25,291 nucleotides of DNA, from the NCBI GenBank assembly GCA_036495445.1, contig DASXMX010000445.1:1-25291 (forward strand). The letters are read 5' to 3'. The stretch is from Tepidisphaeraceae bacterium. Lineage in GTDB: Bacteria; Planctomycetota; Phycisphaerae; Tepidisphaerales; Tepidisphaeraceae. Under the pieces are notes generated by a model. The model was not told where the DNA came from. It searched no databases and worked only from the letters and a program-made list of their open reading frames with translations. A program made the position numbers and the translations under genes. Every line of letters begins with the position of its first letter. Within the stretch, counting starts at the first letter, position 1. Positions 6,216 to 21,251 of this stretch are shown here, piece after piece.

Positions 6216-6217
6216 AA

Positions 6218-6412
6218 TTGAACCACAGAGACACGGAGATCACGGAGAAAAGACGAGAAGAGTATTAGCCACAGATTCACACAGATGGACACAGATGGGA
6301 ATTCAAATTTGAGATCTCAAATTTCAAAACCGGATTTCATCTGTGTGCATCTGTGCCCCATCTGTGGCCTAAATGCATTTCTCTTCTCCGCGTTCTCTGC
6401 GTCTCTGCGGTG
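6218..6412. repeat. long-hairpin palindromic intergenic element, copy A (about 195 bp)
   Basis: Left arm of CACAGAG/CACGGAG heptamer repeats, then ccacagat…cacagatggg. AT-rich self-complementary core aattcaaatttgagatctcaaatttcaaaacc. Then catctgtg…ccccatctgtgg and aaatgcatttctc. Right arm of CTCTGCG/CTCCGCG repeats complementary to the left arm. Lies between PSCyt-PSD1 and DUF1501. Confidence 0.7.
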
Positions 6413-6432
6413 AATCTTTGAGGAAGTTCACA

Positions 6433-7911
6433 ATGCATCCCGAGCTTCTGACCAACTGGCAGCGCGTGACCCGGCGGCAACTGTTCGGGCGGGCGGCGCA
6501 GGGGATCGGCGCCGCGGCACTCGCGTGGCTGATGCAATCGGAAACGGCGCGCGCCGCCACCGCCTCGATGGCCCCGCGCGCGATCGCGGGCCAGCGCGGC
6601 TTGCCGAACCTGCCCCACTTTGCCCCCAAGGCCAAGCGCGTCGTCTGCTTCTGGCAAGGCGGCGGGCCGAGCCACGTCGACCTGTTCGATCACAAACCGC
6701 TGCTGGAGAAGCTCGCCGGGCAGGACATCCCCGAGAGCGTCCGCGGCATGACGCGACTCTCGACGATGTCCTCCGGCTACAAGCGGTGGCCGATCACGCC
6801 CGCGATCAAGCCGTTCCGAAAGTACGGCCAGTGCGGGATGGAATTGAGCGAATTGATCCCCCACACCGGCTCCATCGCCGACGACATCTGCCTCGTACGC
6901 ACGATGAACACCGAGGCGGTCAACCACGCGCCCGGCGTGACGTTCTTCATGACGGGCGCGCAGACGCCCGGCCGCCCGAGCATGGGCGCGTGGCTCAGCT
7001 ACGGCCTGGGCTGCGAGGCCAACGACCTGCCCGCGTTCGTCGTCATGACCTCCTCCGACAAGGGCAAGACCTGCGGCCAGCTCTTCTACGATTATTACTG
7101 GGGCAGCGGGTTCCTCCCCAGCCGCTACCAGGGCGTGCGGTTCCGCGGCGTGGGCGACCCGGTCCCCTACCTGAACAACCCGCCCGGCACCTCCCGCGAA
7201 AGCCGCCGGGCGATGCTCGACGATTTGGCCGCACTGAACGACGAGCACCTGAAGGAATACGGGGATCCGGAGATCGACACCCGGATCAACTCCTACGAGA
7301 TGGCGTTCAAGATGCAGGCGAGCGTGCCGGAACTGCTCGACTTCTCCAACGAGCCCAAGCACATCATTGAAATGTACGGCCCCGACGCGCTGACGAAGGG
7401 CACGTACGCCAACAACTGCCTGATCGCCCGCCGACTGATCGAACGCGGCGTGCGGTTCGTCCAGTTGATGCACAGCGGGTGGGACCAGCACAACAATCTG
7501 TTCACCCAGCTCGCCCAGCAGTGCCGCGACACCGACCAGCCCTCTGCGGCTTTGGTGAAGGACCTGAAACAGCGCGGGCTATTGGACGACACGCTGGTGA
7601 TCTGGGGCGGCGAGTTCGGCCGCACCCCCTTCGGCCAGGGCGACCCCGCCCACCCCGCCGGCCGCGACCACTTCGGCCGCGCCTACAGCATGTGGCTCGC
7701 CGGCGGCGGCGCCCGCGCCGGCACCGCATACGGCCAAACCGACGACTTCGCCTGGAACATCGTCTCCGACGGCGTCCACGTCCACGACATGCAAGCCACC
7801 CTCCTCCACCTGCTCGGCATCAACCACGAAGCCCTCACCTTCCGCTACCAGGGCCGCCAGTTCCGACTGACGGACGTGAGCGGGCAGGTGGTGAAGGGGC
7901 TGATGGCGTAA
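6433..7911 (+). CDS. DUF1501 family protein (sulfatase-like, Tat-secreted), canonical partner of PSCyt/PSD1 proteins
   Basis: Twin-arginine signal (TRRQLFGRAAQGIGAAALA). DUF1501 body. GAGGAAG RBS 8 nt upstream of ATG 6433. Start chosen downstream of the repeat element. Confidence 0.85.
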   Translation: MHPELLTNWQRVTRRQLFGRAAQGIGAAALAWLMQSETARAATASMAPRAIAGQRGLPNLPHFAPKAKRVVCFWQGGGPSHVDLFDHKPLLEKLAGQDIPESVRGMTRLSTMSSGYKRWPITPAIKPFRKYGQCGMELSELIPHTGSIADDICLVRTMNTEAVNHAPGVTFFMTGAQTPGRPSMGAWLSYGLGCEANDLPAFVVMTSSDKGKTCGQLFYDYYWGSGFLPSRYQGVRFRGVGDPVPYLNNPPGTSRESRRAMLDDLAALNDEHLKEYGDPEIDTRINSYEMAFKMQASVPELLDFSNEPKHIIEMYGPDALTKGTYANNCLIARRLIERGVRFVQLMHSGWDQHNNLFTQLAQQCRDTDQPSAALVKDLKQRGLLDDTLVIWGGEFGRTPFGQGDPAHPAGRDHFGRAYSMWLAGGGARAGTAYGQTDDFAWNIVSDGVHVHDMQATLLHLLGINHEALTFRYQGRQFRLTDVSGQVVKGLMA

Positions 7912-7952
7912 ACGGGAGCGAGGTGGACAGCCAGTTCGTGCATCGGTCGCGG

Positions 7953-8747
7953 CTATGGTTGCGAGCGATCGCCGAGAATGGTTTGCGCCCATTCCGCCTG
8001 TAAGGGATTGAGCGGGCATGAGGGCGCGCGTCGATAGTCCAAATCCAAGTCGTACCCGCCGACGTCGTACACTTGGTCGAACGCAGCCTGCAGATCCAAC
8101 GGAACGTCAGCATCCCCATTTCGCAACGGCACCCCAATCACCGGGAGACGTTCCCGAACAGGGACCGGCCAGACAAAGCCCCGTCGCGGCTTGCCCGCCC
8201 GCGACAGGTAAATCTGATATTCCGCCTCCCCGCTTGCCGCCACGTTGGCCGTTCTGGCACCGTCGCGCAGCAGGTCGATTTCCATCCAATGGGCATCGGT
8301 TCCGTAGACCTCGTTTCGCTTCTGGAGAAAGCTATCACGCCCGACCGATCGCGGCATCTTGTTGGTCGGACTACGCATCTCGATCACGGTCACAACCGAG
8401 CGATCCACCCGGTCAAGGATCTCCAGCCGGTGTTCGTGAATTTCGGGATCAATCATCTCCACGACGGGGAGCGGCGGCGCGATGACGAGACCGCCGGCCG
8501 CTCCTCCGCTCGTCGCGGGCGGCCGCTTGCGTGCCGCTTCGATCACCCGCACGTCTGGTACGATGAATCGATACGCCGGATCCTCTTTGTGCGCGACGTA
8601 GACGCGCTCGTCCACCCGCACGAAATACTTCGGCCTGACCGCCGGCCCGAGTCGTTCCTGCAGGGCGCTGAGAAAGGCATGGTGGAACCCGGACCAGATC
8701 GCCGGATCTTCCAGGTACGGATCCATTCCAGGAAACGGTGACGGCAT
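7953..8747 (-). CDS. DUF4058 family protein
   Basis: N-terminus MPSPFPGMDPYLEDPAIWSGFHH matches the hallmark DUF4058 start motif of cyanobacterial and planctomycete proteins. Internal M at 8747 preferred over the track start 8837. Confidence 0.6.
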   Translation of the reverse strand: MPSPFPGMDPYLEDPAIWSGFHHAFLSALQERLGPAVRPKYFVRVDERVYVAHKEDPAYRFIVPDVRVIEAARKRPPATSGGAAGGLVIAPPLPVVEMIDPEIHEHRLEILDRVDRSVVTVIEMRSPTNKMPRSVGRDSFLQKRNEVYGTDAHWMEIDLLRDGARTANVAASGEAEYQIYLSRAGKPRRGFVWPVPVRERLPVIGVPLRNGDADVPLDLQAAFDQVYDVGGYDLDLDYRRAPSCPLNPLQAEWAQTILGDRSQP

Positions 8748-8930
8748 TCGCGAATCTCTCCAACCGGAGTATACCGCGTCTCTTGACGTAATTCGTAACC
8801 TTTTCTCCCTTCCGGGGTTCGGATCAGGTATATTCACGCCCGGCCCTTATACACCTGCATCCCGGCTCGGGGGTTTATACTGCTCCCCAGTACGTGTGAG
8901 TCGTTGATCCCTCCAGAAAGGAGGCGGGCG

Positions 8931-9698
8931 ATGAACGCGGAATGGCTGCTTAATTGGTGGAACCTCATCTTCCTGCTGCCGTTCGGGCTGGCCCTGATGT
9001 ACCTGGGCCTCTACACCGTCAGTGGCCTCACCTTCGGCGACAGCGACGTCGATCACGATTTCGACGCCGAAGCGGACGCCGATGTTGATGCGGACGCGGA
9101 CGCGGATGCGGATGCGGATGCTGATGCGGATGCCGATCACGATCTTGACGCGGATCATGACGCCGATGCGGACTCGGATGCCGACAACGATGCCGATGGC
9201 GAGCAAGCCAGCGAGCATGGCTCGGCTTCGCTCGCCGCGCTCACCTGGCTGGGGCTGGGCAAAGTGCCCGTCAGCCTGTTGCTGATGGTCCTGCTGCTGA
9301 CTTGGGGCGTCGTGGGCTTCATCGCCAACGCGGCGATGCAGAGCCGCGGCGCGTCGGCCGCATTCGTCTCGATCCCGTTGGCCGCGGTGGTCAGCCTCCT
9401 GGCGACGCGGGGCGTCGTGATGATGATCGCGCGGTATTTGCCGCTCTATGAGACAACCGCCCGCCGGCGGCACGCGCTGCTCGGCGCCGAAGGCGAGGCG
9501 ATCTTTCCGATCGACCAGAAATTCGGAATGGTGTCGGTGCGCGACGAGACGGGCGACCTGTATCAAGTCGCCTGCCGGGCCGAGTCCGGGCAGGAACCGA
9601 TCGCCAAGGGGTCGCAAGTGAAGCTCGTCGCCTACAACGCCAAAGAAGGACTCTTCTACGTCACGCGCCGTCCGGTCACTTCGACGACGGCCGCGTGA
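8931..9698 (+). CDS. NfeD-like/YqiJ-type membrane protein with C-terminal OB-fold and an acidic (Asp-Ala)n low-complexity loop
   Basis: N-terminal TM helix, D/A-rich tract, 2-3 TM helices, then a C-terminal beta-rich domain (…[44 protein letters not shown]). GGAGG SD 8 nt upstream of ATG 8931. Immediately upstream of a flotillin gene (yqiJ-yqiK-like arrangement). Confidence 0.65.
9044..9202. repeat. hexanucleotide tandem repeat (GAYGCG)n inside the NfeD-like CDS, encoding [37 protein letters not shown]
   Basis: Direct reading. The antisense frame gives the [10 protein letters not shown] artefact ORF 8847..9881. Confidence 0.7.
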
Positions 9699-9720
9699 CC
9701 ACGCGAAAGCGAGGAATGCC

Positions 9721-11646
9721 ATGTTTGTGTTGGTGCTCTTCTTCCTGGTGGGGTGCGCGCTGATGATCGCGCCGTGGATGCCGTCGGTGATGCCGGGGGC
9801 GTCGGTGACCGCCCGCGCGGTGCCGACAACGATCGGCCTGGGCCTGGTCGTCCTCACCGGCGTCATGACGATGATCGCCAAGCTCTATCGCAAGGCGTCG
9901 GCGAACATGGCGTTCGTCCGCACCGGCATGGGCGGCGTCCGCGTCGTCCGCGACGGCGGCACCATCGTCCTCCCCGTCATCCACCACGTGATCCCCGTCT
10001 CGCTGGAGACGATGCGGCTCAACGTCGAGCGCCGCGGGCCGCACGCGCTGATCACGCGCGACAACCTGCGGGTCGATCTCTCCGCCGAGTTTTACATCAA
10101 GGTCGAGGCGAACTCGGATCACATCCTCCAGGCGGCCCGCTCGCTGGGCGGCAAAAACGTCCAGCCGGACGGCGTGAGCGAACTGGTTCAGGAGAAGCTC
10201 GTCAGCGCGCTGCGCACGGTGGCGGCGACGAAGGAACTGGTCGAGCTTCACGCGAAGCGCGACGAGTTCGCCAGCGCCGTGCAGGAGATCGTGACGCACG
10301 ATCTGGCCAGCAACGGGCTGACGCTCGAATCGGTCACGATCTCGTCGCTTGACCAGACCGACCCGAGCCAGCTTCAGGAGAAGAACGTCTTCGACGCGCA
10401 GGGCCTTCGCAAGATCGCCGAGATCACGCAGCGGGCCCGCGTCGAGCGGAACGAGATCGAGCAGGAATCGCAGCGGCAGGTCGTCGAGCGGAACGTCGCG
10501 ACGACCAAGAAGGTGCTGGACCTGCAGCGCGACCAGGCCGAGTTCGAGGCCGAGCAGAAGATGAAGGTGGCCAACGTCCGGGCGGCCCGCGAGCGGGAGG
10601 TGCAGGAGTTCAAGCTGGCGCAGGACGAGGCGATCTCGCGGCGGGACATCGAGAAGATGAAGAACATCGAGACCGCCGAGGTCGAGCGGACGCTGGTGGT
10701 CGAGCAGGCGCAGGTCGCCAAGAAGGTGGCGCTGGTCTCCAAGCTCAAGGAGCAGGAGACGGCCGAGATCCTCAAAAAGCAGACGCTCGAGGTGGCCGAG
10801 CGGAACAAGGAAGTGGCGGTGGCGGAGAAGGAGCGGGAGCGTGCGGAGGCGCAGGCCGCGGTGCTCGCCGCCGAGGCCGAGCGCGAGTCGGCCAAGCAGA
10901 AGGTGCTGACGGTGCAGGTCACCAGCGAGGCGGACCGCGAGGCCGGCAAGCAGTTGATCGCCGCCAAGCAGGTCATCGAGCAGAACAAGCTGCGCGAGCA
11001 GACGACGGCGGACGTGGCCGCGTACATGGCGGTGAAGAAGGCCGAGGCCGAGCGGCAGGCCGCCGAGGCGACCTACCAGGCGAAGCTGCGGCTGGCGGAG
11101 GGCGAGGCGCAAGCGCAAGCCAAGCGTGCCGAGGGTGATCGCGCGGTAAAGATGGTCGACGTGACGATCGGCCGCGAGCAGGTCGGCGTCGAGCAGGCCC
11201 GCGTCGAGGTCGAACGCCAGAGCCTGTCGAACAAGCAGGAGTTCGAGGCGGCCGCGCTGGGGTTCGAACTGGAGAAGCTGCGGATCGCCGCCGAGCGGGA
11301 GATCCGCATCGCGGCGGCCCAGGCGATGGGCAACATGATGGCCAAGGCGCAGATGCAGATCTTCGGCGACCCGACGACGATGGCCGCCATGGCCCAGCAG
11401 TTCATGCGGGCCGCGGGCCTGGGCCTCGCGACCGACGGGCTGATGAAGACGATGCCGGCCCAGGGCCAGGAACTGCTCACGCAAGTGGTCGGCGCCGTCG
11501 CCTCGCAGCTTCAGCCCAAGCCGACCGAACCCGCCGCACCCGCAACCGCAGGGAACGGCGCCACGATCGGATTGACCGGGACCGCCGCGCAGGTTACGCC
11601 GGCTGCGGCAGTGAAGGAAGTCCGCAAGGGCGAAGGTCGGAAGTAA
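9721..11646 (+). CDS. flotillin-like SPFH/band-7 domain protein (YqiK/FloA-like) with long coiled-coil C-terminus
   Basis: N-terminal membrane anchor, SPFH domain (…FVRTGMGGVRVVRDGGTIVLPVIHHVIPVSLETMRLNVER…), then E/A/K/Q-rich coiled coil. GAGG RBS upstream of ATG 9721. 22-bp gap after the NfeD-like gene. Confidence 0.85.
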   Translation: MFVLVLFFLVGCALMIAPWMPSVMPGASVTARAVPTTIGLGLVVLTGVMTMIAKLYRKASANMAFVRTGMGGVRVVRDGGTIVLPVIHHVIPVSLETMRLNVERRGPHALITRDNLRVDLSAEFYIKVEANSDHILQAARSLGGKNVQPDGVSELVQEKLVSALRTVAATKELVELHAKRDEFASAVQEIVTHDLASNGLTLESVTISSLDQTDPSQLQEKNVFDAQGLRKIAEITQRARVERNEIEQESQRQVVERNVATTKKVLDLQRDQAEFEAEQKMKVANVRAAREREVQEFKLAQDEAISRRDIEKMKNIETAEVERTLVVEQAQVAKKVALVSKLKEQETAEILKKQTLEVAERNKEVAVAEKERERAEAQAAVLAAEAERESAKQKVLTVQVTSEADREAGKQLIAAKQVIEQNKLREQTTADVAAYMAVKKAEAERQAAEATYQAKLRLAEGEAQAQAKRAEGDRAVKMVDVTIGREQVGVEQARVEVERQSLSNKQEFEAAALGFELEKLRIAAEREIRIAAAQAMGNMMAKAQMQIFGDPTTMAAMAQQFMRAAGLGLATDGLMKTMPAQGQELLTQVVGAVASQLQPKPTEPAAPATAGNGATIGLTGTAAQVTPAAAVKEVRKGEGRK

Positions 11647-11660
11647 TCGAATGGCTTTCG

Positions 11661-11689
11661 GGTGGCATGGGCATGTACCGATGCCCGTG
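11661..11689. repeat. REP-like half element (GGTGGCATGGGCATG-TACC-GATGCCCGTG) abutting long-hairpin element B
   Basis: Similar to half of the double-hairpin element at 13846 and 21075. Confidence 0.5.
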
Positions 11690-11704
11690 TCTCGCTCGAA
11701 AATG

Positions 11705-11916
11705 CAGTCACAGAGGGCACGGAGGACACAGAGAGCACAGAGGAGAAATGCATTCTGGCCACAGATGGGGCACAGATGCACGCAGATCAAATGCAGATCT
11801 GAGATTTCACATCTCAAATTTGAAATCCCAATCCGTGTCGATCTGTGCCTCATCTTTGGCGATCCATTCTTGTATTCTCTCTGTGCTCTCTGTGTTCTCT
11901 GTGTTCTCTGTGGTTA
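11705..11916. repeat. long-hairpin palindromic intergenic element, copy B (about 212 bp, inverted relative to A and C)
   Basis: CACAGAG x several, then gagaaatgcattctgg, then ccacagatggggcacagatgcacgcagat. Core tgagatttcacatctcaaatttgaaatccc. Then cgatctgtgcctcatct and CTCTGTG x5. Confidence 0.7.
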
Positions 11917-11947
11917 TGTTTTAACGGCTGTGGAACGGAATCGAGCC

Positions 11948-12418
11948 ATGACCTGGAAAGAGCAACTTAACGAGGGCCTCGCCGCGTTCGGGGTGCGGAT
12001 CCCGGACGAACTGCCGATCGACCAGTGGGCAACGAGGCTGGGCGATAACCCGTGCCGCAACACGGCGGCGCTGGTCACGCTTTCGAGCCTGCTGTTCTAT
12101 GCAGCCGAGCGGGACCACAATCCGAAGGTGAACGACGTCTTCGACGCCGCGGTCTATTGCTCGACGTGCCTGAGCGTCGGGTATGGGGATATCTTTGCGA
12201 GGACCCCGCTGGGGAAATTGTTGGGGACGGCGCTGATGACGATCGGGCCGTCGCTCTCCGGCGCGGCGCTGGACGGGCCGGCCGCGGAGCGGCGGGATGC
12301 GACGCAGGAGCAGATCCTCGCGACGCTCAAGCAGATCCTGGAACGATTGCCCGCGAATGGGGCGGAGAGCGGGGCAGATCAACCTGCCACCGTAACGGAT
12401 CAGACGGGCAGGGAATGA
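11948..12418 (+). CDS. minimal two-TM potassium channel (Ion_trans_2 / KcsA-like pore protein)
   Basis: Selectivity-filter signature CSTCLSVGYGDIF (T-x-G-Y-G-D) preceded by a pore helix and flanked by two hydrophobic helices. 157 aa, no gating domains. Start placed at the first ATG after the repeat element. Confidence 0.7.
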   Translation: MTWKEQLNEGLAAFGVRIPDELPIDQWATRLGDNPCRNTAALVTLSSLLFYAAERDHNPKVNDVFDAAVYCSTCLSVGYGDIFARTPLGKLLGTALMTIGPSLSGAALDGPAAERRDATQEQILATLKQILERLPANGAESGADQPATVTDQTGRE

Positions 12419-12596
12419 GGGCGGTGCCGTCGCGCCATCGATTACCCCCGATCGTCGCTTGCGTTGGGCGGGGCCGCCGGTGGGCGTTCCTTCGTTCGCG
12501 AAGCCGCAAGCGGCGGGACCGAACTGGCCTCCTGCTCCCATTTCTGCGAACATCTGGACGATCTGCGGATCAACCTTCGGCAGTTTCGGAGCGATC

Positions 12597-13556
12597 ATGA
12601 CGATGCCAATGAACCGACGAGACCTGATGAAGCTCGGCGCCGGCGCCAGCGTCGCTGCTCTCCTTAATCTCGGGGTGGACACCGGTCGGGCTCAGGACGT
12701 GTCTTCTTTGCCCCTTCGCGGGCATGAGCCAGATTTGATCGGCGGCACCAAGCGCGGATTCAAGAAAGCCGTCATGTGGGACATGATCAAGGGCGGCACC
12801 ACCGTCCTCGAGAAGTTCCAAATACTCAAGGAGGCCGGGTTCGACGGGGTCGAGATGAACAGCCCCGGCGGGCCGCCGAACGATGAGATCAAGCGCGCCT
12901 GCGAAAAGACCGGCCTGCTCGTTGAAGGCATGGTCGATTCGACCCACTGGAAAATCACGCTCTCCCACCCCAACCAAAGCGTGCGCGATCAGGGACTTCG
13001 GGACCTGGAACAGGCGCTGCGCGACTGCAAGGACCTGGGCGGCACCAGCGTGCTGCTGGTGCCGGGCGTCGTGAACGCCAACGTCACCTACGACCAGTGC
13101 TACGAGCGTTCGCAGGAACAGATCCGCAAGGCGCTGCCGCTGGCGCAGGAACTGGGCGTGCGGATCGCGGTGGAGGACGTGTGGAACGACTTTTTGCTCT
13201 CGCCGCTGGAAGCGGCCCGGTACGTCGACGAGTTCAACAACCCCGCCGCCATAGGCTGGCACATGGACATCGGCAACATCATGGCCTACGGCTACCCCGA
13301 GCAGTGGATCCACATCCTCGGCCGCCGCATCCTCAAGCTCCACGTGAAGGAGTTCAGCCGCTCGAAGATGGACAAGGAGGGGCGATGGAAGGGCTTCGAC
13401 GTGAAGCTCGGCGACGGGGACATCAACTGGAAGGCCGTCATGACCGCCCTCGACGCCATCAGCTATCACACCTGGATGTGCGCCGAAGTGCCCGGCGGCG
13501 ACCTCGACGCCCTCAAGGACATCGCCCGCCGGATGGACGGTATTCTAGCGTTGTGA
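12597..13556 (+). CDS. sugar phosphate isomerase/epimerase (xylose-isomerase-like TIM barrel) with Tat signal peptide
   Basis: Twin-arginine signal (MNRRDLMKLGAGASVAALL) on a xylose-isomerase-like TIM-barrel body (…HMDIGN…), a pattern common in Planctomycetes and Verrucomicrobia. GC3-rich. Confidence 0.75.
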   Translation: MTMPMNRRDLMKLGAGASVAALLNLGVDTGRAQDVSSLPLRGHEPDLIGGTKRGFKKAVMWDMIKGGTTVLEKFQILKEAGFDGVEMNSPGGPPNDEIKRACEKTGLLVEGMVDSTHWKITLSHPNQSVRDQGLRDLEQALRDCKDLGGTSVLLVPGVVNANVTYDQCYERSQEQIRKALPLAQELGVRIAVEDVWNDFLLSPLEAARYVDEFNNPAAIGWHMDIGNIMAYGYPEQWIHILGRRILKLHVKEFSRSKMDKEGRWKGFDVKLGDGDINWKAVMTALDAISYHTWMCAEVPGGDLDALKDIARRMDGILAL

Positions 13557-13697
13557 CCCCACCGCACCGTTGTCCGGCACCACCAGCGCCGATGACGTCG
13601 TCGATGCCGCCGACGCCTGCGCGGGCTGCTGCCCGCGGGTCGCCACGAACTCCGCCAGCGCGATCAGCAGGAAGATCATCAGTCGCCGTTTCCTCAT
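13545..13697 (-). CDS. small ORF (50 aa) with a classical signal peptide (MRKRRLMIFLLIALAEFVATRG…), hypothetical
   Basis: GGAGG 8 nt upstream of ATG 13697 on the minus strand. Overlaps the isomerase 3' end by 12 bp. Could be spurious. Confidence 0.25.
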   Translation of the reverse strand: MRKRRLMIFLLIALAEFVATRGQQPAQASAASTTSSALVVPDNGAVGSQR

Positions 13698-13845
13698 GAC
13701 ATTGGCCTCCAACTCGCCCGGGAGTTTCATCTAATAAAACGGCCGGGAAGGCCAATCGGCATACTTCCGCGGAATTCCCCAGACGTTTCCCGCAACGGGC
13801 AGGTCCGATAACCACGCCATGTTCACCCGTCGGTTGCCGATTCCG

Positions 13846-13925
13846 GGTGGCACGGACAAGTACCCTTGTCCGTGGGGGTCGCGCGCATCCGCTCACCACG
13901 GACATGGGTACATGTCCGTGCCACC
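13846..13925. repeat. REP-like double-hairpin palindromic element, copy 1 (GGTGGCACGGACAAGTAC-cc-TTGTCCGTGG … CCACGGACATG-ggta-CATGTCCGTGCCACC)
   Basis: Two adjacent hairpins whose outer halves are also mutually complementary. Near-identical copy at 21075-21150. Confidence 0.7.
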
Positions 13926-13973
13926 CGGCATGAATCCATTCTCGCGCAACGTGCCGGCAGGTAGGCTGATGAC

Positions 13974-14699
13974 ATGGGACCGAGTCCCCACAGTGTCACT
14001 CGTTCGATTCACGCGATCCCGGGCTCAGCCGACGCCGGCTTCGACCGAATCTGCGGTAACTGCAGCTACCTCCTCATCGGCCTGCCCGGCTCGGGCATCT
14101 GCCCCGAATGCGGCGAACCCTATCGCGAGGACGAGATCGTCCTCCGCGGCTGGGCGGATGGCGTTCATCAGACCGCGGCCACCGCGCCGCCTAAGCAGTT
14201 GTGGTGGTCGCTGCTCGGCTCGTTCGCGTGGGTGGTGGTCAACCTGGTGACGGACCTCGTTGCCGGCCATTGGAGGATCGCGACGTTCTGGTTCGCCCTG
14301 CTCGCGTGCGGGACCGCGTGGTTGCTCTACCGGCGGCATCGATTGCTCGACGACTTCGGCGGCGCCTGCCACCTGCGCCTCTCGCCCGCCGGCATCGGTC
14401 AGCGGGTTGGGTTCGGGCCAGTCAAGCTGATCCCATGGCTGCCGGGCCTCACGGTCGAGCTCAAACCCACGGATTCCGGCATGTATCGCCTGACGGCGTC
14501 CCGTCCGGGGCCCGGGAGCGGGTATCGCAGCGGGAAAATGCTCTGGCCGATCGACTTCGAATTCGAATGCTCGCACGAGCAAGCCGCGATGTTGCAGGAT
14601 AAGCTCGACCAGTTCCGTGGAATCGAAAGGACTGCGCAAGCCGAGATCGTCTCGTCCCGGCCTTCACAATTTCGACGACCGGAACGCGCCCAAGCGTAA
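13974..14699 (+). CDS. hypothetical membrane protein with N-terminal C4 zinc-ribbon (CGNC…CPEC) and two TM helices
   Basis: Cys-x2-Cys-x14-Cys-x2-Cys, then WWSLLGSFAWVVVNLV and FWFALLACGTAWLLY hydrophobic helices. GC3-rich after the first 10 codons. Start uncertain. Confidence 0.45.
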   Translation: MGPSPHSVTRSIHAIPGSADAGFDRICGNCSYLLIGLPGSGICPECGEPYREDEIVLRGWADGVHQTAATAPPKQLWWSLLGSFAWVVVNLVTDLVAGHWRIATFWFALLACGTAWLLYRRHRLLDDFGGACHLRLSPAGIGQRVGFGPVKLIPWLPGLTVELKPTDSGMYRLTASRPGPGSGYRSGKMLWPIDFEFECSHEQAAMLQDKLDQFRGIERTAQAEIVSSRPSQFRRPERAQA

Positions 14700-14784
14700 G
14701 GATGCCCATCGCCTCCGGTGGACCTTCGGACTTCGACGAGCTCAGTACGTGCCCATGCCGCCCGAAGGCCCGGATGCGCGACCG

Positions 14785-15324
14785 CTACCGCGTCAGCGCC
14801 GCGGTCGCGGTCGGGCCGGATTGGAATCGGCTGTTGAGGCCACAGCGGGCCAGGCAGCAGACGGCGATCTCCGCCAGCGGCTGGTCGCGGTGCTTGAGCA
14901 GCTCATCCCAGCTCGCGTACGACTCGCAGACGTCCGGCCAGATGCCGCTGCTGTGCGAGCCGACCACCGCCACCCCGTCCGCGGTCTGCCAGATCTGCAA
15001 ATCGATCCAGTAGGCGGTGTTCGCCACGTCGAGGTGGAACAGGATCGCCAATTCGTTGCCGTGCTGTTCCACCGTGACGCGGGAGGACCCGCCTTCCCAG
15101 AACCAGTACGGCTCGCCGAGCATCACCTCGGCGCCCGGCGACTGGGTGACGATGCGCCCCTGCTGCAGCACCACCGGCACCGCCGCGGCACCGCACGGCT
15201 CACACAGGAACAGGAGCGGGAGCAACCAGCACGCGCCGCCGGTGAGGCGGCTCGCGGTTTCGAACGACCTGCCGGCGAGGAATCCTTTCCTCGATCCGGC
15301 CCGAATAGGAAGAATGCTTTCCAT
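14785..15324 (-). CDS. hypothetical secreted protein (signal peptide; no recognisable domain)
   Basis: Minus-strand frame has near-uniform G/C third positions and realistic composition. The overlapping plus-strand ORF 14617..15342 is Arg-rich antisense-type. Confidence 0.45.
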   Translation of the reverse strand: MESILPIRAGSRKGFLAGRSFETASRLTGGACWLLPLLFLCEPCGAAAVPVVLQQGRIVTQSPGAEVMLGEPYWFWEGGSSRVTVEQHGNELAILFHLDVANTAYWIDLQIWQTADGVAVVGSHSSGIWPDVCESYASWDELLKHRDQPLAEIAVCCLARCGLNSRFQSGPTATAALTR

Positions 15325-15512
15325 AGCGCCGGTGCTCCATAGCTAACGCGGTGCCATGAGTGTCCGGTGCTCCAATTTCCCGAGGCCCGTTCCGCCGCCG
15401 CCCGCTCCTAAGCGGCTGTCCCAAAGCAATCTCGGGATTGACCTGACGCGCACGTCATGGCAAGCTACGCGACACAAAGGTTCGATAACCATTCATTTCT
15501 TCGGGGATTTCG

Positions 15513-16610
15513 ATGTCCGCGATGAAGCAAATTTCGAACGTGTTTTGCATCACTGTCGCTTTTCTGAGCATCCTTGCCGGCCTTGCCGCCGGTGCGGGCC
15601 GGCCGCCCAAGGAGATTATGGCCGAACTGCAGCAGGTGAGCGGCGAGATTTCACGATGGGGCCGCAGCGATCGGCTGATGGACCCGAAATACCGCCACTT
15701 CTTCAGCGAGAAGCTTTCCCCGACGCTGAAGAGGAAGGCCGACCTGCTCCACGAATTGGAAGCCGCCATGCCTTCGCGAAAGGCGGAAAACCAGTATGAA
15801 GAGGATCGGACGCTGGCGATGCTCAGCGTGTTGGGCGACGAGTCGGCGGGCAAGACGCTTGCGGATGCCGCCGCCGGCGCGGACGCAACCGCGGCACACA
15901 ACGCGAAGCTCGGCCTGGCCCTGCGCGACTGGTGGGCGGATCAGACGCCCGATCCGCAGCAAACGGTGCTCGACGGGCTCAAGCCGATGGTGAAGGCCAA
16001 GCCAATTGACGATCTGCTCGCGCTGACGCTCGTCACCATGGCCGACAGCCGCGCGTCGTCACCGGAGTTGGCCGACGAAGCGAGGACGATCGTGGAGAAG
16101 GAGCTGAAAGGCCCCTGGGCGATCCGCTACCGGTCCACGCCGAACCGGATCGGCCGGCCGCTGGTGGTCTCGGGAACGACGGCGCAAGGCAAGTCCGCCT
16201 CGACGCTCGCATGGAAGGGCAAAGTCGTCATGATCGATTTCTGGGCCACCTGGTGCCCGCCCTGCCGCGCGGAAATGCCGAAGGTGATCGAGCTCTATAA
16301 GAAGTACCACGATCAGGGCTTCGAGATCATGGGCGTCTCGAACGACTCGGACCGGCGGGAACTGCTTCAGTTCGTGAGGGACAACCCGGACATCAAATGG
16401 CCGCAACTCTTCGGCCCGGCGTCCACCGCCCCGCACTGGCACCAGCTTTCCGCCCGGTTTGACGTGAACGCGATCCCCACCGTGTACCTGATCGACCGCA
16501 ACGGGACCCTCCGCTCGATGACCGCCCGCGGGGAGCTCGAAACGCTCGTGCCCGAGTTGCTGGCGGAGAAACCGAGCGAGACGTCGGGCTCCGGGAAGAC
16601 CGCAGGGTAA
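15513..16610 (+). CDS. TlpA/ResA-like thiol-disulfide oxidoreductase (thioredoxin fold, WCPPC active site) with signal peptide and a novel N-terminal domain
   Basis: Thioredoxin-fold signature VVMIDFWATWCPPCRAEMP…GFEIMGVSND…IPTVYLIDRNGTL. N-terminal hydrophobic signal. Confidence 0.8.
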   Translation: MSAMKQISNVFCITVAFLSILAGLAAGAGRPPKEIMAELQQVSGEISRWGRSDRLMDPKYRHFFSEKLSPTLKRKADLLHELEAAMPSRKAENQYEEDRTLAMLSVLGDESAGKTLADAAAGADATAAHNAKLGLALRDWWADQTPDPQQTVLDGLKPMVKAKPIDDLLALTLVTMADSRASSPELADEARTIVEKELKGPWAIRYRSTPNRIGRPLVVSGTTAQGKSASTLAWKGKVVMIDFWATWCPPCRAEMPKVIELYKKYHDQGFEIMGVSNDSDRRELLQFVRDNPDIKWPQLFGPASTAPHWHQLSARFDVNAIPTVYLIDRNGTLRSMTARGELETLVPELLAEKPSETSGSGKTAG

Positions 16611-16635
16611 AGGCGCGTTCACTTCGCATCCGTAG

Positions 16636-16657
16636 GGGCAGGCCCCCGTGCCTGCCC
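16636..16657. terminator. bidirectional terminator-like hairpin GGGCAGGC-ccccgt-GCCTGCCC followed by tcttcttc
   Basis: 8-bp GC stem between convergent genes (thioredoxin ends 16610; reductase ends 16680). Confidence 0.45.
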
Positions 16658-16679
16658 TCTTCTTCTGCCCGCTGCTGCC

Positions 16680-17669
16680 CTACGAGTGCCCCAGCACCGG
16701 GTGCGGCTGATACGGTTCGGCCAGCGCGTGCAGTTCCTCTTCGGCCAGCCGCAACTCGAGGGCGGCGATCGCCTCGTCGAGGTGTTTCATCTTGCTCGCC
16801 CCCACGATGGGCGAGGTGACGCCGGGCTGCGCCAGCAGCCATGCCAGCGCGACCTGGGCGTTGGCGACGCCCCGCCGCCGGGCGATTTCGCTGACGCGGT
16901 CGACCACCGTGAAATCCGATTCCTGGTAGTAGAGCTTGTGCGCAAAGTCGTCGGTCCTGGCCCGCGACGTGTCGCCGAACCCCTGCTCGCGCCCCTTGCG
17001 GTTGCCGGCAAGGAACCCCCGGGCCAGCGGGCTCCAGGGGATGACGCCGATCCCCTGGTCGATGCAGAGCGGGATCATCTCCCGCTCCTCCTCGCGGTAG
17101 ACGAGGTTGTAATGGTTCTGCATCGTGGTGAACCGGCTCAGGCCAAGCCGGTCGGACGCGTGGAGCATTTTCGCGAACTGCCACGCGTACATCGACGACG
17201 CGCCGATGTAGAGCGCCTTGCCTGCCTTCACCACGTCGGTCAGCGCCTCGAGCGTCTCCTCGATCGGCGTGTGGGGGTCGAAGCGGTGAATCTGATAGAG
17301 GTCGACGTAATCGGTCCCGAGCCGCCGGAGGCTGTCGTCGATCGCGTGGTGGATGTGCTTGCGCGACAGGCCGCGTTGGTTGGGATCGTCGCCCATGACG
17401 CTGAAGACCTTGGTCGCGATCACGAACCGGTCGCGGGGCGCGCCCAGGTCCTTCACCGCCCGCCCGAGGATCTCCTCGCTGACGCCCAGCGAATAGACGT
17501 CGGCGGTGTCGTAAAAGTTAATCCCTGCGTCCCACGCCCGCCGGAAGAACGGCCGGCTCTCCTCCTCTTCCAACACCCATTCCCGCCATTTCTTGGAGCC
17601 GTAGGTCATGCACCCCAGGCAGATGCGGGAAACCTTGAGGCCGGTGGCGCCGAGATTCACGTATTGCAC
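16680..17669 (-). CDS. aldo/keto reductase family oxidoreductase
   Basis: AKR N-terminal and body motifs (…QYVNLGATGLKVSRICLGCMTYG… DTADVY …). GTG start at 17669 with AAGGA 7 nt upstream, preferred over the ATG at 17732. Confidence 0.85.
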   Translation of the reverse strand: MQYVNLGATGLKVSRICLGCMTYGSKKWREWVLEEEESRPFFRRAWDAGINFYDTADVYSLGVSEEILGRAVKDLGAPRDRFVIATKVFSVMGDDPNQRGLSRKHIHHAIDDSLRRLGTDYVDLYQIHRFDPHTPIEETLEALTDVVKAGKALYIGASSMYAWQFAKMLHASDRLGLSRFTTMQNHYNLVYREEEREMIPLCIDQGIGVIPWSPLARGFLAGNRKGREQGFGDTSRARTDDFAHKLYYQESDFTVVDRVSEIARRRGVANAQVALAWLLAQPGVTSPIVGASKMKHLDEAIAALELRLAEEELHALAEPYQPHPVLGHS

Positions 17670-17713
17670 GCGTCGATCCTTTCGTCGGTGAGATCCCGGA
17701 GATGCTAGGCCGG

Positions 17714-17926
17714 TTGAACCACAGATGCACAACGAACCCGGAGGAAAAGCCAGGAAGAATTAGCCACAGATCGACACAGATGCACACAGATGAAATGCAG
17801 ATTTGAAAGTTCAAATCTCGAATTTCAAATCTGAAATCCCCATCTGCGTGCATCTGTGCCCCATCTGTGGCAAAAAACGCATTTCCCTCTGTGTCCTCTG
17901 TGTTCTCGGTGCTCTCTGTGATTGCA
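17714..17926. repeat. long-hairpin palindromic intergenic element, copy C (about 213 bp, same orientation as A)
   Basis: ttgaaccacagatgcacaacg…attagccacagatcgacacagatgcacacagatg. Core ttgaaagttcaaatctcgaatttcaaatctgaaatcccc. Then atctgcgtgcatctgtgccccatctgtgg and ctctgtgtcctctgtgttctcggtgctctctgtg. Lies between the divergent AKR and TPR-GT9 genes. Confidence 0.7.
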
Positions 17927-17991
17927 TCTTGGGTGGACGCCGCGCGGCTGAGGCTTACAATGCCCCGCATCCCGGCAAGGAGGCCAGGGCG

Positions 17992-19674
17992 ATGTTGCAG
18001 CAGCAGTTCAGCACGGACGAGTCCCTCCAGTTTGCGCTGGCCCACCACCGCGACGGGCGGTTTGCCGAAGCCGAGGCGATCTACCGGCAGGTGCTCGCCG
18101 ACGATTCGAAGAATCCGCAGGCGTTGAACCTGATGGGCACGCTGGCGATGCAGACGGGCCGGCTGCCCCTCGCGGCCGACCTGCTCGGCCGGGCCGTCGT
18201 CGCCCGGCCCGAGATGGCCAGCTTCCATTGCAATCTCGGTGAAGCCTATCGACGGATGGAGCGTCTCGACGACGCGATCGCCCATTTCCGCCGGGCGATC
18301 GAACTCGACCCAAGCCTCTCGATGGCTCACAACAATCTGGGCCTGGCTCTGGGCGACCGGGCCGAATGGCAAGCGGCTGCCGAGGCGTTCCGCGCGGCCA
18401 TCCGCATTCAGCCCGGCTGCGCGCCGTTCCACAGCAATCTCGGAAATGTCCTGAGAGAAGCCGGCGAGTTCGACGCCGCCGTTGATGAATTGGGCAGGGC
18501 GGTCGAGTTGGATCCGAATTCCCCGGAGTCGCACAACAACCTCGGCGTCGCGCTGGCCGCACAGGATCGAGCCGAAGAGGCGATCGGGTCCTACCTGCGG
18601 GCGCTCCAATTGAATCCCCGCTATGGCGAGGCGTTCAGCAACCTGGGGAACGCGCTGTTCACCACCGGAGATTACGATCGGGCGGTGAAGGTCTGCCGGA
18701 CGGCGGTCTCGCTCGCGCCCGACTCCCCCGCCGCCCATTGGAACCTGGCCGTCGCGCTGCTGCGCACCGGCAACTTCGAAGCCGGCTGGCCCGAGCACGA
18801 ATGGCGGTTACGGACCAAGCTCAAGTTCCCCGTGCGGCCGTTCACGCAGCCCCAATGGCGCGGCGAGCCGCGGGAGGGCCGGACGATCCTCCTGCACGCC
18901 GAGCAGGGGTTCGGCGACGGGATCCAGTACGTCCGCTACGTCAAGTTCGTCGCCGACCGCGGCGGCCGCGTCGTCCTCGAATGCCATCCCGAGTTGCGCC
19001 GGCTCTTCGACGGTTTCCCGGGAACCGAGCAAGTGATCGCCCGCGGGGAGCCCCTGTCCGACTTCGACCTGCACTGCCCGCTGGCCAGCCTCCCGTTCGC
19101 CTGTCGAACGCGACTCGAAACGATTCCCGCCGACGTCCCCTACCTCTTCGCCCGGCCGAACCTGGCGCATTCGTGGTCGGCCAAACTCGGCCCGTCCGAT
19201 CGTCCGCGCGTCGGGATTGTCTGGGCCGGCAACCCCACGCATCCGAACGACCGGATCCGGTCCGTCCCCCTCAAGCGACTTGCCCCGCTCGCAAAGGCGA
19301 ACGTCGAGTTCCACGGCCTTCAGAAGGCGCCGTCAGCCGCCGCCCAGGCGTTCGACCCGGCAGTGGGCCTGCGCGTGATCGATCACCATCAAGAGCTGAC
19401 CGACTACATCGACACCGCCGCGTTGATCTCCTGCTGTGATCTGGTGATTGCGGTGGACACGTCGGTGGCCCACCTCGCCGGCGCGCTGGGCAAGCCGACG
19501 TGGGTGTTGATCCCGTTCGTCGCCGACTGTCGCTGGCTCGTCGGCCGCACCGACAGCCCCTGGTACCCCGCGATGCGCCTCTTCCGCCAACTGCGCCGCG
19601 ACCGCTGGGACGAGGCGATTGACGCGATGGCTCATGAACTGGCGAATTGGGCGAGCCGTTTCAGTCGCTCATAG
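17992..19674 (+). CDS. TPR-repeat protein with C-terminal glycosyltransferase family 9 (heptosyltransferase-like) domain
   Basis: At least 8 TPR units (…AEAIYRQVLADD…ALNLMGTLA…), then a GT9-like C-terminus (…VDTSVAHLAGALGKPTWVLIP…). AAGGAGG 9 nt upstream of ATG 17992. Confidence 0.75.
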   Translation: MLQQQFSTDESLQFALAHHRDGRFAEAEAIYRQVLADDSKNPQALNLMGTLAMQTGRLPLAADLLGRAVVARPEMASFHCNLGEAYRRMERLDDAIAHFRRAIELDPSLSMAHNNLGLALGDRAEWQAAAEAFRAAIRIQPGCAPFHSNLGNVLREAGEFDAAVDELGRAVELDPNSPESHNNLGVALAAQDRAEEAIGSYLRALQLNPRYGEAFSNLGNALFTTGDYDRAVKVCRTAVSLAPDSPAAHWNLAVALLRTGNFEAGWPEHEWRLRTKLKFPVRPFTQPQWRGEPREGRTILLHAEQGFGDGIQYVRYVKFVADRGGRVVLECHPELRRLFDGFPGTEQVIARGEPLSDFDLHCPLASLPFACRTRLETIPADVPYLFARPNLAHSWSAKLGPSDRPRVGIVWAGNPTHPNDRIRSVPLKRLAPLAKANVEFHGLQKAPSAAAQAFDPAVGLRVIDHHQELTDYIDTAALISCCDLVIAVDTSVAHLAGALGKPTWVLIPFVADCRWLVGRTDSPWYPAMRLFRQLRRDRWDEAIDAMAHELANWASRFSRS

Positions 19675-19698
19675 CTAAGGATGCTGGTTGAGCTGAAA

Positions 19699-19836
19699 GT
19701 GAACCGCGGATTACGCGGATGGCGCGGATAAGAAGAAAATGCCATTCTCCCATCCGCGCTATCCGCCTAATCCGCGGTTCTTTCTCTTTGGCCTTCTCTC
19801 TGTGTCCTCTGTGTTCTCCGTGCCCTCTGTGGTTGC
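19699..19836. repeat. long-hairpin element, variant copy D: arms built from CGCGGAT / ATCCGCG heptamers instead of CACAGAT / ATCTGTG, plus a CTCTGTG tail
   Basis: gaaccgcggattacgcggatggcgcggat, then aagaaaatgccattctcc, then catccgcgctatccgcctaatccgcgg, then ttctctctgtgtcctctgtgttctccgtgccctctgtggttgcat. Confidence 0.6.
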
Positions 19837-19850
19837 ATTTTCAAGCAACG

Positions 19851-19880
19851 CCACGGGCATGGGTACATGCCCATGCCACC
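19851..19880. repeat. REP-like half element (CCACGGGCATG-ggta-CATGCCCATGCCACC) abutting element D
   Basis: Homologous to the second hairpin of the 13846 and 21075 elements. Confidence 0.5.
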
Positions 19881-19896
19881 CCACCGCCAATTCGCG

Positions 19897-20913: not shown

Positions 20914-21074
20914 GACTTTCCCCGTTGAAAGGACGTCTCGACCAATTCTCTCAATGAGCCGGACATGTGGCCCCACCGACGTCGCCCGCCCCGGAATCGG
21001 GGCATCGACGCGGACCAACATCATACCATCGCAGTCGCAGGCGGCCAGACTCAAAACATGAGTTGGCCGAACCG

Positions 21075-21150
21075 GGTGGCACGGACAAGTACTCTTGTCC
21101 GTGGCGTCGCGGCCGAAGACCACGGACATGAGTACATGTCCGGTGCCACC
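21075..21150. repeat. REP-like double-hairpin palindromic element, copy 2
   Basis: GGTGGCACGGACAAGTAC-tc-TTGTCCGTGG … CCACGGACATG-agta-CATGTCCGGTGCCACC. Same orientation as copy 1. Confidence 0.7.
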
Positions 21151-21251
21151 CCGCAATGCGATGGCCGCGAGATTGGATACCGGCGCCCTGCCTGCGTTAA
21201 ACTCCTCCAAACCGTCGATTATCGGAAACCCACAACGACCGAGTTATTCCG

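Follow-up and report, generated by a model that had tools for sequence, protein, structure and literature searches.

Nested palindromic repeats built from CACAGAG-type heptamers in a Tepidisphaeraceae contig, and the occurrence of their arms in other phyla and in phages

Four hairpin loci between genes of the contig

The window analysed in this study is a 25.3-kb contig (65% G+C) from an uncultured Tepidisphaeraceae bacterium (Phycisphaerae, Planctomycetota), which is a Joint Genome Institute (JGI) metagenome contig as well. The source organism is represented by this one 25-kb contig of a metagenome-assembled genome (MAG), and copy counts cover that contig alone. Intergenic palindromic elements built from short units such as CACAGAG occur at four loci of the window, named A to D. 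All four hairpins that a sequence-only reading of this DNA had proposed are present. When folded as single-stranded DNA they reach z scores of -8.0 (A), -10.4 (B), -6.6 (C) and -6.5 (D), with none of 200 shuffled sequences folding as well, and the fold energies of A and B are -49 kcal/mol and -64 kcal/mol, respectively. The arm pattern CTCTGTGNNCTCTGTGNNCTCNGTG is matched eight times in the window with up to three mismatches, against an expectation of 0.01. The parts of the four loci are the following.

6218-6415, no strand assigned: copy A, a nested palindrome between the PSCyt/PSD1 and DUF1501 genes
6224-6247: outer left arm of copy A, CACAGAG followed by two CACGGAG units
6270-6296: inner left arm of copy A, three CACAGAT units
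~6297-6338: A+T core of copy A
6339-6366: inner right arm of copy A
6386-6409: outer right arm of copy A, the reverse complement of CGC-type units
11701-11920, no strand assigned: copy B, after the Band_7 gene (stop 11646) and ahead of the ion-channel gene (ATG 11948)
11709-11742: outer left arm of copy B, four units
11760-11787: inner left arm of copy B
~11788-11830: A+T core of copy B
~11831-11862: inner right arm of copy B, degenerate
11879-11912: outer right arm of copy B, four CTCTGTG units
17714-17928, no strand assigned: copy C, between the divergent aldo-keto reductase and TPR/GT9 genes
17720-17750: outer left arm of copy C, degenerate
17765-17791: inner left arm of copy C
~17792-17841: A+T core of copy C
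17842-17869: inner right arm of copy C
17887-17920: outer right arm of copy C, four units
19699-19839, no strand assigned: locus D overall, between convergent stop codons at 19674 and 19897
19699-19782, no strand assigned: D hairpin, a separate module of ~80 nt with 29-nt arms that are 93% complementary and no A+T heptamer core; it consists of a GTGAAC end, three CGCGGAT units at 19705-19729 (9-nt period), a 22-nt loop, three ATCCGCG-type units at 19752-19776 and GGTTC
19798-19839, plus strand: solo outer right arm of D, with CTCTGTG, CTCTGTG, CTCCGTG and CTCTGTG followed by GTTGCATT; the left partner is absent

Copies A, B and C, which are 198-220 nt long and are crossed only by spurious open reading frames (ORFs), follow a plan of two nested layers of inverted arms around an A+T-rich centre. 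The outer arms begin with a TGAACC or ATGCAACC end, continue with three to four CACAGAG or CACGGAG units at a period of 9 nt, and are answered on the right side by three to four CTCTGTG units. The inner arms comprise TTAGCC and three CACAGAT units at a period of 10 nt, with three CATCTGTG units and GGC on the right side, and they enclose a core of A+T-rich 7-nt units (GAAATCT, CAAATTT and similar). Both layers have one arm design in common, a TTxxCC-like end plus three to four CRCRGAK heptamers spaced 9-10 nt apart, of which 12 arms occur in the window when both strands are counted. The composite looks like one palindrome placed in the loop of another.

The three copies align from end to end with 78% column identity over ~200 nt. 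Because this similarity extends over the whole length and includes the non-repeat linkers, where, for instance, AGTATTAGCC is matched to AGAATTAGCC and A and C are 92% identical over 36 nt, the alignment identifies A, B and C as homologous, true copies of one element. The proposal that all four loci have the same architecture thus holds for A, B and C and fails for D, which combines a different hairpin with a solo outer arm that is 90% identical to the right arm of copy C. D is a different module and not a diverged homologue, so it is not the covarying variant of A to C for which it had been taken. Likewise, a terminal (T)TGAACC is found in A, C and D and is missing from B, and the tail CTCTGTGGTTGCAT, attributed to every copy, is exact in D and not exact in the other three.

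Gene context of the elements

The gene map is based on ORF composition and Pfam, and includes the following genes.

3468-6215, plus strand: PSCyt1/PSCyt2/PSD1 gene, stop codon at 6213-6215
6433-7911, plus strand: DUF1501 gene, ATG at 6433
7953-8837, minus strand: DUF4058 gene
8904-9698, plus strand: YqiJ-like gene
9721-11646, plus strand: Band_7 gene
11948-12418, plus strand: ion channel gene
12459-13556, plus strand: xylose-isomerase-like gene
16680-17669, minus strand: aldo-keto reductase gene, start at 17669
17992-19674, plus strand: TPR/GT9 gene, ATG at 17992
19897-21210, minus strand: TPR protein gene

Copies A and B lie between co-directional genes, copy C between divergent genes and D between convergent genes. 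The elements had been described as standing immediately 5' of start codons, which applies to A, B and C (17, 27 and 63 nt from the end of the palindrome to the ATG) and not to D, which sits between two convergent stops. The distance from the upstream stop codon to the start of the element is 2 nt for A and 24 nt for D. The 3' end of copy A does not supply the ribosome-binding site of the DUF1501 gene, as had been suggested: GAGGAAG at 6420-6426 falls beyond the end of the palindrome at 6415. In the orthologue L287 (L numbers designate loci elsewhere), AGGAAG is found at the equivalent spot, there beside a different element.

The sole sigma-70-like promoter match in 6000-20100, whose match total is not above chance, is at 17934-17961 (TGGACG, a 16-nt spacer and TACAAT), directly downstream of copy C and ahead of the start of TPR/GT9. 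Two further repeats of the window are of other kinds. Approximately 11 imperfect GAYGCN hexamer repeats in the YqiJ-like ORF (9033-9198) encode an Asp/Ala-rich low-complexity stretch, and AATGTCCCAA is present as a tandem of 2.8 copies at 23666-23693, in the long intergenic region ahead of a gene for an HSDR_N-domain protein.

The arm motif in other phyla

An exact scan for CTCTGTGNNCTCTGTGNNCTCNGTG, with one genome per species, gave at least 120 loci, and the figures that follow are from the 180 arms among the matches listed. The arms are distributed over more than 20 phyla. Carriers include Planctomycetota, Chlamydiota, Verrucomicrobiota, Acidobacteriota, Chloroflexota, Bacteroidota, Ignavibacteria, Calditrichota, Cyanobacteria, Firmicutes, Spirochaetota, Gemmatimonadota, several classes of Proteobacteria and several candidate phyla. 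The consensus of the arms is WTT[A/C][A/G]C-CACAGAG-RR-CACAGAG-RR-CACAGAG-AAA, and the period is exactly 9 in 371 of 385 intervals. An inverted partner is located within 400 nt of 121 of the 180 arms (median loop 47 nt), and 52 of the 180 are solo. The number of units in the partner arm, which is not chosen by the search pattern, peaks at three (68 arms, versus 40 with two and 10 with four). Variant units at the same loci are CACGGAG, CACTGAG, CGCAGAG, CGCGGAG and CGCAAAG. Conservation thus concerns the arm's primary sequence.

Nested layers also occur elsewhere (L025, L026, L092 and L097). In L097, the design of outer arms and A+T core is found between successive ORFs of an operon, the last with a lipoyl-type N-terminus. 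In a separate case from a Chitinophaga MAG (L099, 775-1020), CACAGAG-type elements are arranged head to tail with a period of ~110 nt, as a satellite-like array. By crude, heuristic gene calls, 61 of the listed elements are in co-directional, 27 in convergent and 14 in divergent contexts; the median distance is 25 nt to the stop codon upstream and 65 nt to the start codon that follows. The palindrome continues into the flanks, which are rich in T on the 5' side and in A on the 3' side.

The distribution of the motif is patchy. It is absent from 5,426 complete Escherichia coli genomes, and it is present, always unannotated, in the cultured carriers Bacteroides finegoldii, B. ovatus, Gemmatirosa kalamazoonensis, Pseudoalteromonas, and Nostoc and Anabaena replicons. 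Replicons of Gemmatirosa, Bacteroides, Nostoc and Anabaena have it in multiple copies, as do phage contigs; in G. kalamazoonensis it occupies 13-16 places per ~1-Mb replicon. In B. finegoldii, a full palindrome lies between convergent genes, directly after a canonical terminator.

The arm motif in phage contigs and in permuted controls

Viral contigs, which may include host DNA, were scanned for the CTCTGTG arm and for control units. The counts are as follows.

CTCTGTG, genomes: at least 120 loci; inverted partner in 59% and location in long open frames in 38% of the matches listed
CTCTGTG, viral contigs: at least 120 loci, with up to 6 arms per contig; inverted partner in 17% and location in long open frames in 49% of the matches listed
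CTGTCTG (permuted control), viral contigs: 27 loci; inverted partner 0%; in long open frames 76%
CCTTGGT (permuted control), viral contigs: at least 120 loci; inverted partner in 0% and location in long open frames in 90% of the matches listed
ATCCGCG (D-type unit), viral contigs: 27 loci; inverted partner 0%; in long open frames 81%
Inner-arm pattern with 2-nt spacers, viral contigs: 3 loci

CCTTGGT is a poor control because it matches repeats within long open frames, probably collagen-like, and raw hit counts are uninformative; the discriminating features are the inverted partners and the non-coding location. As a caution for counts based on periodicity, CCTTGGT arrays of 9-nt period (L318-L397) are very abundant in viral contigs, giant-virus bins included.

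Solo arms make up 129 of 196 arms among the viral matches listed. One group of 10 related phage contigs (the L234 group) has a solo arm at the same gene junction, where it starts at the stop codon (TAA/TGA-CCACAGAG...) and where (CTTAAAA)n fills the stretch from its end to the next ATG. Related phages differ in the presence or absence of the arm and in the number of its units (two versus three). The orientation of solo arms is not consistent relative to genes, since the trends are opposite: CTCTGTG is on the sense strand by 16 to 4 in genomes, and CACAGAG by 42 to 25 in viral contigs.

Phage arms are regularly found beside other runs of 7-nt units, TATCCAG (more than 15 units), CGATTTG and CTTAAAA, which mirrors the A+T cores of the window; examples are at L209 ~1490-1630 and 10840-10900, at L191 ~11860 and 13180, and in the L234 group. 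The 9-nt period also lets arms sit in coding sequence. At L172 1502-1527, a phage gene has a 27-nt CTCTGTG arm at its 3' end, in the reading frame (...SSVPSVSSVVK*; the stop and a start codon overlap as ATGA), and in a comparison with L260 and L283 one relative has two units instead of three and the more distant one has none.

Pairing and covariation of the arms

The sequence-only reading had held that the unit sequence changes between copies while complementarity of the arms is kept, and that this reflects selection on a hairpin rather than on primary sequence. The alignment of A to C does not bear this out. Of the 56 pairs that RNAalifold predicts, most are invariant, five are changed on both sides and many are disrupted in one of the copies. 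The covariation term, at +3.12, is on the unfavourable side, a value of low power because only three copies are homologous. When left halves are compared with the reverse complement of right halves, there are 22 G.T/T.G and 21 A.C/C.A mismatches. Selection on a one-strand transcript would tolerate G.U pairs and not A.C, so these equal counts reveal no strand-specific wobble tolerance. The same symmetry is found in strict arm pairs from many phyla (32 mismatches of each kind), and strand-specific wobble was thus rejected as a sign of selection at the RNA level.

Copy A had been taken for an intermediate that keeps its complementarity (CACGGAG paired with CTCCGCG). Its outer arms have CAC-type units on the left and CGC-type units on the right, which produces the same A.C mismatch at unit position 2 in all three units and indicates that the units have probably been homogenised within each arm at the cost of pairing. 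Within any arm, all units share one variant; this uniformity points to amplification and homogenisation of units as the likely process, and not to paired point substitutions. The difference between D and the CACAGAT arms involves two positions per unit, three units and two arms. Twelve coordinated point changes are an implausible origin for D; a plausible one is that a variant unit was amplified and the array then duplicated in inverted orientation. Quasipalindromes are established sites of template switching, which can generate hairpins and apparent compensatory changes in one step, without selection (PMC8794818).

Spacer nucleotides provide a further view of pairing. Across 40 strict pairs from many phyla, 76 of 160 spacer positions (47.5%) form Watson-Crick pairs, against 58.6 in shuffled pairings; 76 is attained in 2 of 1000 shuffles. 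Spacers are thus more complementary within than between elements (76 versus 58.6), as are flanks (111 versus 78). The heptamers are near-invariant across phyla, and with spacers that pair at 47.5% the order of selection proposed by the earlier reading is reversed: the heptamer sequence is conserved and continuous pairing is not. A practical warning follows from these arms. Inverted duplication together with homogenisation would yield arms of repeat units that co-vary perfectly, and such arms should not be taken as evidence of a selected RNA structure.

Turnover at orthologous sites

A scan of metagenomes with the Band_7 protein recovered 45 loci with 41-92% identity, more than 20 of which retain the synteny of the YqiJ, Band_7 and ion-channel genes. 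At the junction orthologous to that of copy B, many unrelated palindromes are found among ~30 relatives, and a few relatives (L135, L132 and L142) have no clear palindrome there. The palindromes are of CCCTCTCCC...GGGAGAGGG types, of GTGGCACGGGC types, or hairpins built from other units. The copy A site has changed in a similar manner. In L287, whose protein is a 92% orthologue, the outer ends are kept (GAACCACGGAG... and ...CACTGCGGTTAAT), the interior consists of CGAAATC-type units, and the fold is lost (z = -1.6), and in L288 (85%) and L289 (Humisphaera borealis, 78%) the site holds unrelated GTGGCACGGGC-type hairpins. Arms of the CRCRGAK type number 12 in the 25-kb window versus 2 in 314 kb of relatives (41-92% protein identity). 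There is rapid turnover and lineage-specific amplification at these sites.

The hairpins of other units at the Band_7/ion-channel junction include tandem-heptamer forms at L126 ~2190-2270 (four GGGTTCA units, GGGTTCA/TGAACCC), L157 ~790-870 (three TTCAAGA units, TTCAAGA/TTGAATC) and L151 (CCGTTGTCAGT), as well as L152 and hairpins of CTTCCGA units. This variety suggests that the clade may have a general tendency to build palindromes from short repeat arrays. The first of the types named above, CCCTCTCCC-N-GGGAGAGGG with GGGTGAGGG-type flanks, constitutes a third palindromic family, which abounds in relatives and does not occur in the window; its carriers at this junction are L122, L125, L128, L130, L133, L134, L136, L145, L149, L150 and L156.

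A second palindromic family, GGGTGGCAYGGRCA...GTAC...TGYCCRTGCCACCC, is unrelated to the elements at A to D, and each of its halves is a small hairpin. Window copies are at 11652-11689, 13840-13931, 14742-14770, 19852-19889 and 21072-21104, and others are in L124, L288 (9925-9985) and L289 (9830-9950). The copy at 13840-13931 is a complete inverted pair with 36-nt arms that are 92% complementary. Members of this family adjoin B and D, and related GTGGCACGGGC-type hairpins fill the orthologous A and B sites of relatives. The family looks like a repetitive extragenic palindromic (REP) or REPIN element. A separate palindrome at 23810-23880, with 29-nt arms that are 93% complementary and include GTAGCCGGGGAGC, may be a GTAG-tagged REP-like element.

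A protein has also acquired repeat sequence. The gene upstream of copy A has this feature in its PSD1 domain:

5373-5468, plus strand: in-frame insertion of ~96 nt in the PSD1 domain, with five AAATCTG/AAATCTC units at 5397-5430

The array has a period of 7 and 4.9 copies, its heptamers are of the kind found in the element cores, and the insertion encodes ...KSEISNLKSEISE... in the protein. The insertion is present in the window and in L287 (92%) and is missing from L288 (85%) and L289 (78%). The inserted stretch 5373-5468 is not a hairpin (z = -0.9).

Tests against known element classes

A dispersed, non-coding, intergenic family of palindromic repeats, comparable to transposable elements of the miniature inverted-repeat type (MITEs) or bacterial interspersed mosaic elements (BIMEs), is supported by these results, as the earlier reading had proposed. 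Copies A to C have the terminal inverted repeats, small size and lack of coding capacity of MITEs. Direct repeats flanking A to D are not visible, and ordinary genes lie between arms that are separated by more than 1 kb. A gene for a REP-associated tyrosine transposase (RAYT, a Y1 HUH transposase) was found neither in the window nor near 240 loci that carry the motif. The arms are tandem arrays starting WTT[AC][AG]C-CACAGAG and not REP units, which are palindromes of 20-40 nt with a GTAG/CGTC tag. The elements also lack the palindromic unit (PU) or REP motifs and defined linkers of BIMEs, and are a modular mosaic by analogy only. Heptamers repeated head to tail every 7 nt, as in short tandemly repeated repetitive (STRR) and long simple sequence repeat (LSSR) families, are confined to the A+T core and the intragenic array, and the arms have a period of 9-10 nt.

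The earlier view that this is not a described element also stands. Searches of Rfam returned only matches to plant microRNA precursors that fell far short of the threshold, which are generic long hairpins. A description of palindromes with CACAGAG arrays was not found in the literature searched by sequence strings and topic; the sole match to the motif strings is a Bacteroides fragilis PCR primer that happens to fall on an arm. The elements do not qualify as a novel structured RNA, given 5 double-changed pairs among 56, equal G.T and A.C counts and a z score of -1.6 for the orthologue, although with three homologous copies this comparison has low power.

Other identities were considered and rejected. 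A search for terminators located two short, weak stems within elements (one in D and one in C) among 9 sites in total, compared with a shuffle mean of 10.0. Intrinsic terminators are further disfavoured by the lack of a U-tract, by flanks whose T-rich 5' and A-rich 3' sides have the reverse polarity, and by the B. finegoldii element, which sits after a terminator. For an array of DnaA boxes, the first 9-mer TTAACCACA resembles TTATCCACA, but the other units share only CACA, and the resemblance was judged to be probable numerology. The head-to-tail spacing of 9 bp is also unlike that of the low-affinity DnaA sites in oriC of E. coli. Shine-Dalgarno-like or anti-Shine-Dalgarno-like arms, Rho loading sites, and CsrA or Hfq motifs were considered as well, and none fits all units and both orientations. 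DRT10, a defence reverse transcriptase that makes 9-nt repeats, would be an attractive source of the arrays, but no observation connects it with these loci.

Favoured explanation and its competitors

The explanation that we favour, with a probability of roughly 45%, is that copies A to C are a non-autonomous, non-coding, mosaic nested palindrome of the REP, BIME or MITE kind, which would be selfish and whose arms would be putative recognition sites for a trans-acting factor. The arms would be bound sequence-specifically by a protein, most likely the enzyme that copies or moves the element, as is the case for RAYT and REP or for a transposase and its terminal inverted repeats. The family would amplify in bursts within lineages and land in intergenic regions, preferably just past stop codons and inside resident palindromes, such that the nested layers may represent insertions into palindromes already in place. 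Amplification, placement and nesting are observed, and the act of insertion is presumed. Given what is known of template switching, the arms would be complementary because they are inverted copies of each other, refreshed by template switching or gene conversion; the pattern is seen and the process is supposed. Slippage would homogenise the units within an arm, with no role for compensatory substitution under selection on RNA. Copies would then decay and be replaced rapidly, as is seen at the orthologous sites. A transcript of either strand would form the same stem-loop of a purine arm and a pyrimidine arm, which could shield 3' ends or separate cistrons. Such an influence would presumably be incidental, or at most recruited secondarily.

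Several results weigh against this explanation. Among 42 strict pairs from many genomes, no target-site duplication (offsets 0-8, lengths 2-4) was detected above shuffles, the only excess being self-complementary GC at the arm edge. No protein family, transposases included, is common to the neighbourhoods of the 240 loci, where the clusters are ordinary phage structural genes. An exact pair of filled and empty bacterial sites with clean boundaries was not found at the orthologous positions. In addition, the solo arm of the phage group described above has 96.8% pairwise identity versus 67-78% for the flanking coding DNA, and conservation of this kind fits a function in host or phage better than pure selfishness.

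It is possible, if doubtful, that TTxxCC-(CACAGAG-N2)3 is an undescribed, phage-carried, cross-phylum cis-element that is read by a conserved factor, either a new mobilising enzyme that leaves no duplication or a DNA- or RNA-binding protein of gene boundaries, and that the nested palindromes of the window are the amplification of its outer-arm motif in one lineage. If true, a signal of 26-33 nt common to Planctomycetota, Bacteroidota, Cyanobacteria, Acidobacteriota, Chloroflexota, classes of Proteobacteria and phages has gone unnoticed. Families of the REP, BIME and MITE kind normally belong to one lineage and one enzyme, whereas the arm described here is the same in Bacteroides, Nostoc, Gemmatirosa, Planctomycetota and uncultured phages. 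Because the arm is found in distant taxa and is missing from E. coli and from close relatives of the source organism, a horizontally travelling partner or a widely conserved reader is needed. The Bacteroides and Nostoc carriers are cultured and genetically tractable, and the question is thus directly testable. The interest of the family, which we regard as moderate to high, derives from this cross-phylum motif and not from co-variation of the hairpin.

The main competitor, itself unlikely, is that the arms are putative binding sites of a conserved DNA- or RNA-binding protein of host or phage, located at gene boundaries and spread by ordinary recombination. Each palindrome would then be two such sites in inverted orientation, and the whole a regulatory or architectural cis-element. 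A near-invariant heptamer next to variable spacers, partner arms that peak at exactly three units, the frequency of solo arms among the matches listed and the weak pairing of spacers all accord with this proposal, as does the phage-group arm, which begins at the stop codon, continues as (CTTAAAA)n to the next ATG and is better conserved than the coding sequence around it. However, no candidate protein emerged, the orientation of arms relative to genes is inconsistent, and close relatives of the source lack arms at the same junctions, which is unlike a required regulatory site. A 9-bp period also does not hold sites on one face of B-DNA.

Less probable again is a local origin without transposition, by which slippage arrays and template-switch inversions arise in place and the likeness between sites results from gene conversion or convergence. 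Heptanucleotide repeats are reported to be the commonest long simple repeats in prokaryotes, with slippage of the polymerase given as their cause (Mrazek et al. 2007, as summarised in PMC4679880), and template switching can produce hairpins with apparent compensatory changes in one step (PMC8794818). The hairpins of other units at the same intergenic site of relatives (GGGTTCA, TTCAAGA and CCGTTGTCAGT), the difference in unit number between related phages and the homogenised units within arms are consistent with such an origin. However, A, B and C share non-repeat linkers and module order at three unlinked sites. Moreover, more than 20 phyla carry the same arm of 26-33 nt, its end and phase unchanged; inverted partners are never seen for permuted heptamers, and the unit number peaks at three with no steady fall-off.

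It is improbable that selection has acted on the hairpin itself, with the elements serving as functional structured RNAs or as DNA cruciforms, such as processing or stabilising stem-loops between cistrons or attenuators, which was the preference of the sequence-only reading. The very stable folds, the intercistronic position in operons (PSD1/DUF1501, Band_7/ion channel and L097), the higher complementarity of spacers and flanks within elements, and the presence of some palindrome at the Band_7/ion-channel junction of most relatives all speak for this proposal. On the other side, covariation is lacking in A to C, G.T and A.C mismatches are equal in number here and across phyla, and the fold is lost in the closest orthologue (z = -1.6). 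L135, L132 and L142 have no clear hairpin at the Band_7/ion-channel junction, one copy separates divergent promoters and a half-copy stands alone. A U-tract is also lacking, the polarity of the flanks is reversed relative to a terminator, and the Bacteroides finegoldii element is directly downstream of a canonical one. Finally, chance low-complexity sequence without common origin, for which the frequency of 9-nt-periodic heptamer arrays in coding DNA might speak (at least 120 viral loci for the CCTTGGT control), is already refuted by the fold scores (-6.5 to -10.4), the eight arm matches against 0.01 expected, the 78% identity of A to C, and the control arrays, which lie in long open frames in 76-90% of cases and never have inverted partners.

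Comparison with known systems

A close likeness is to the REP and BIME sequences of Enterobacteria and Pseudomonas and to REPINs, which RAYT transposases mobilise. These sequences are extragenic, reach high copy numbers in some genomes, form imperfect palindromes and modular mosaics, occur after stop codons or between cistrons, leave no target duplication and have a patchy distribution. A REP unit is a palindrome of 20-40 nt with a 5' GTAG or CGTC tag (PMC3733652). The arms described here are instead tandem heptamer arrays that are not self-palindromic and carry no tag, and no RAYT gene was seen in the window or near the 240 loci. REP sequences are also lineage-specific, whereas the present arm motif crosses phyla. 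With bacterial MITEs (Correia/NEMIS, ERIC, RUP and Nezha), the elements share a length of 100-250 nt, terminal inverted repeats, an A+T-rich interior without an ORF, an intergenic location and lineage-specific amplification. They differ in that no target-site duplication was detected among the strict pairs and no parent insertion sequence of matching ends in the neighbourhoods of the 240 loci, in their internally repetitive ends and in their common solo arms.

Rickettsia palindromic elements are repeats that are inserted in frame in protein genes and then retained. The insertion of ~96 nt in the PSD1 domain resembles them in being in frame, although it consists of a heptamer array with flanks and not of a palindrome. 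The STRR sequences of cyanobacteria are a family of short tandem heptanucleotide repeats. In families of this general kind, two to six intergenic heptamers are often located near gene starts and occasionally within genes, and unrelated phyla share the same heptamer, for which no vehicle is known. Examples are the TAACTGA repeats of Beggiatoaceae, Cyanobacteria and Bacteroidetes (PMC4679880) and the heptanucleotide families of Geobacter metallireducens (PMC2700814). The A+T core of the present elements and the heptamer runs beside phage arms are kin in kind to these families, whose members are direct repeats with a 7-nt period; the arms, in contrast, have a period of 9-10 nt, a defined end and usually an inverted partner.

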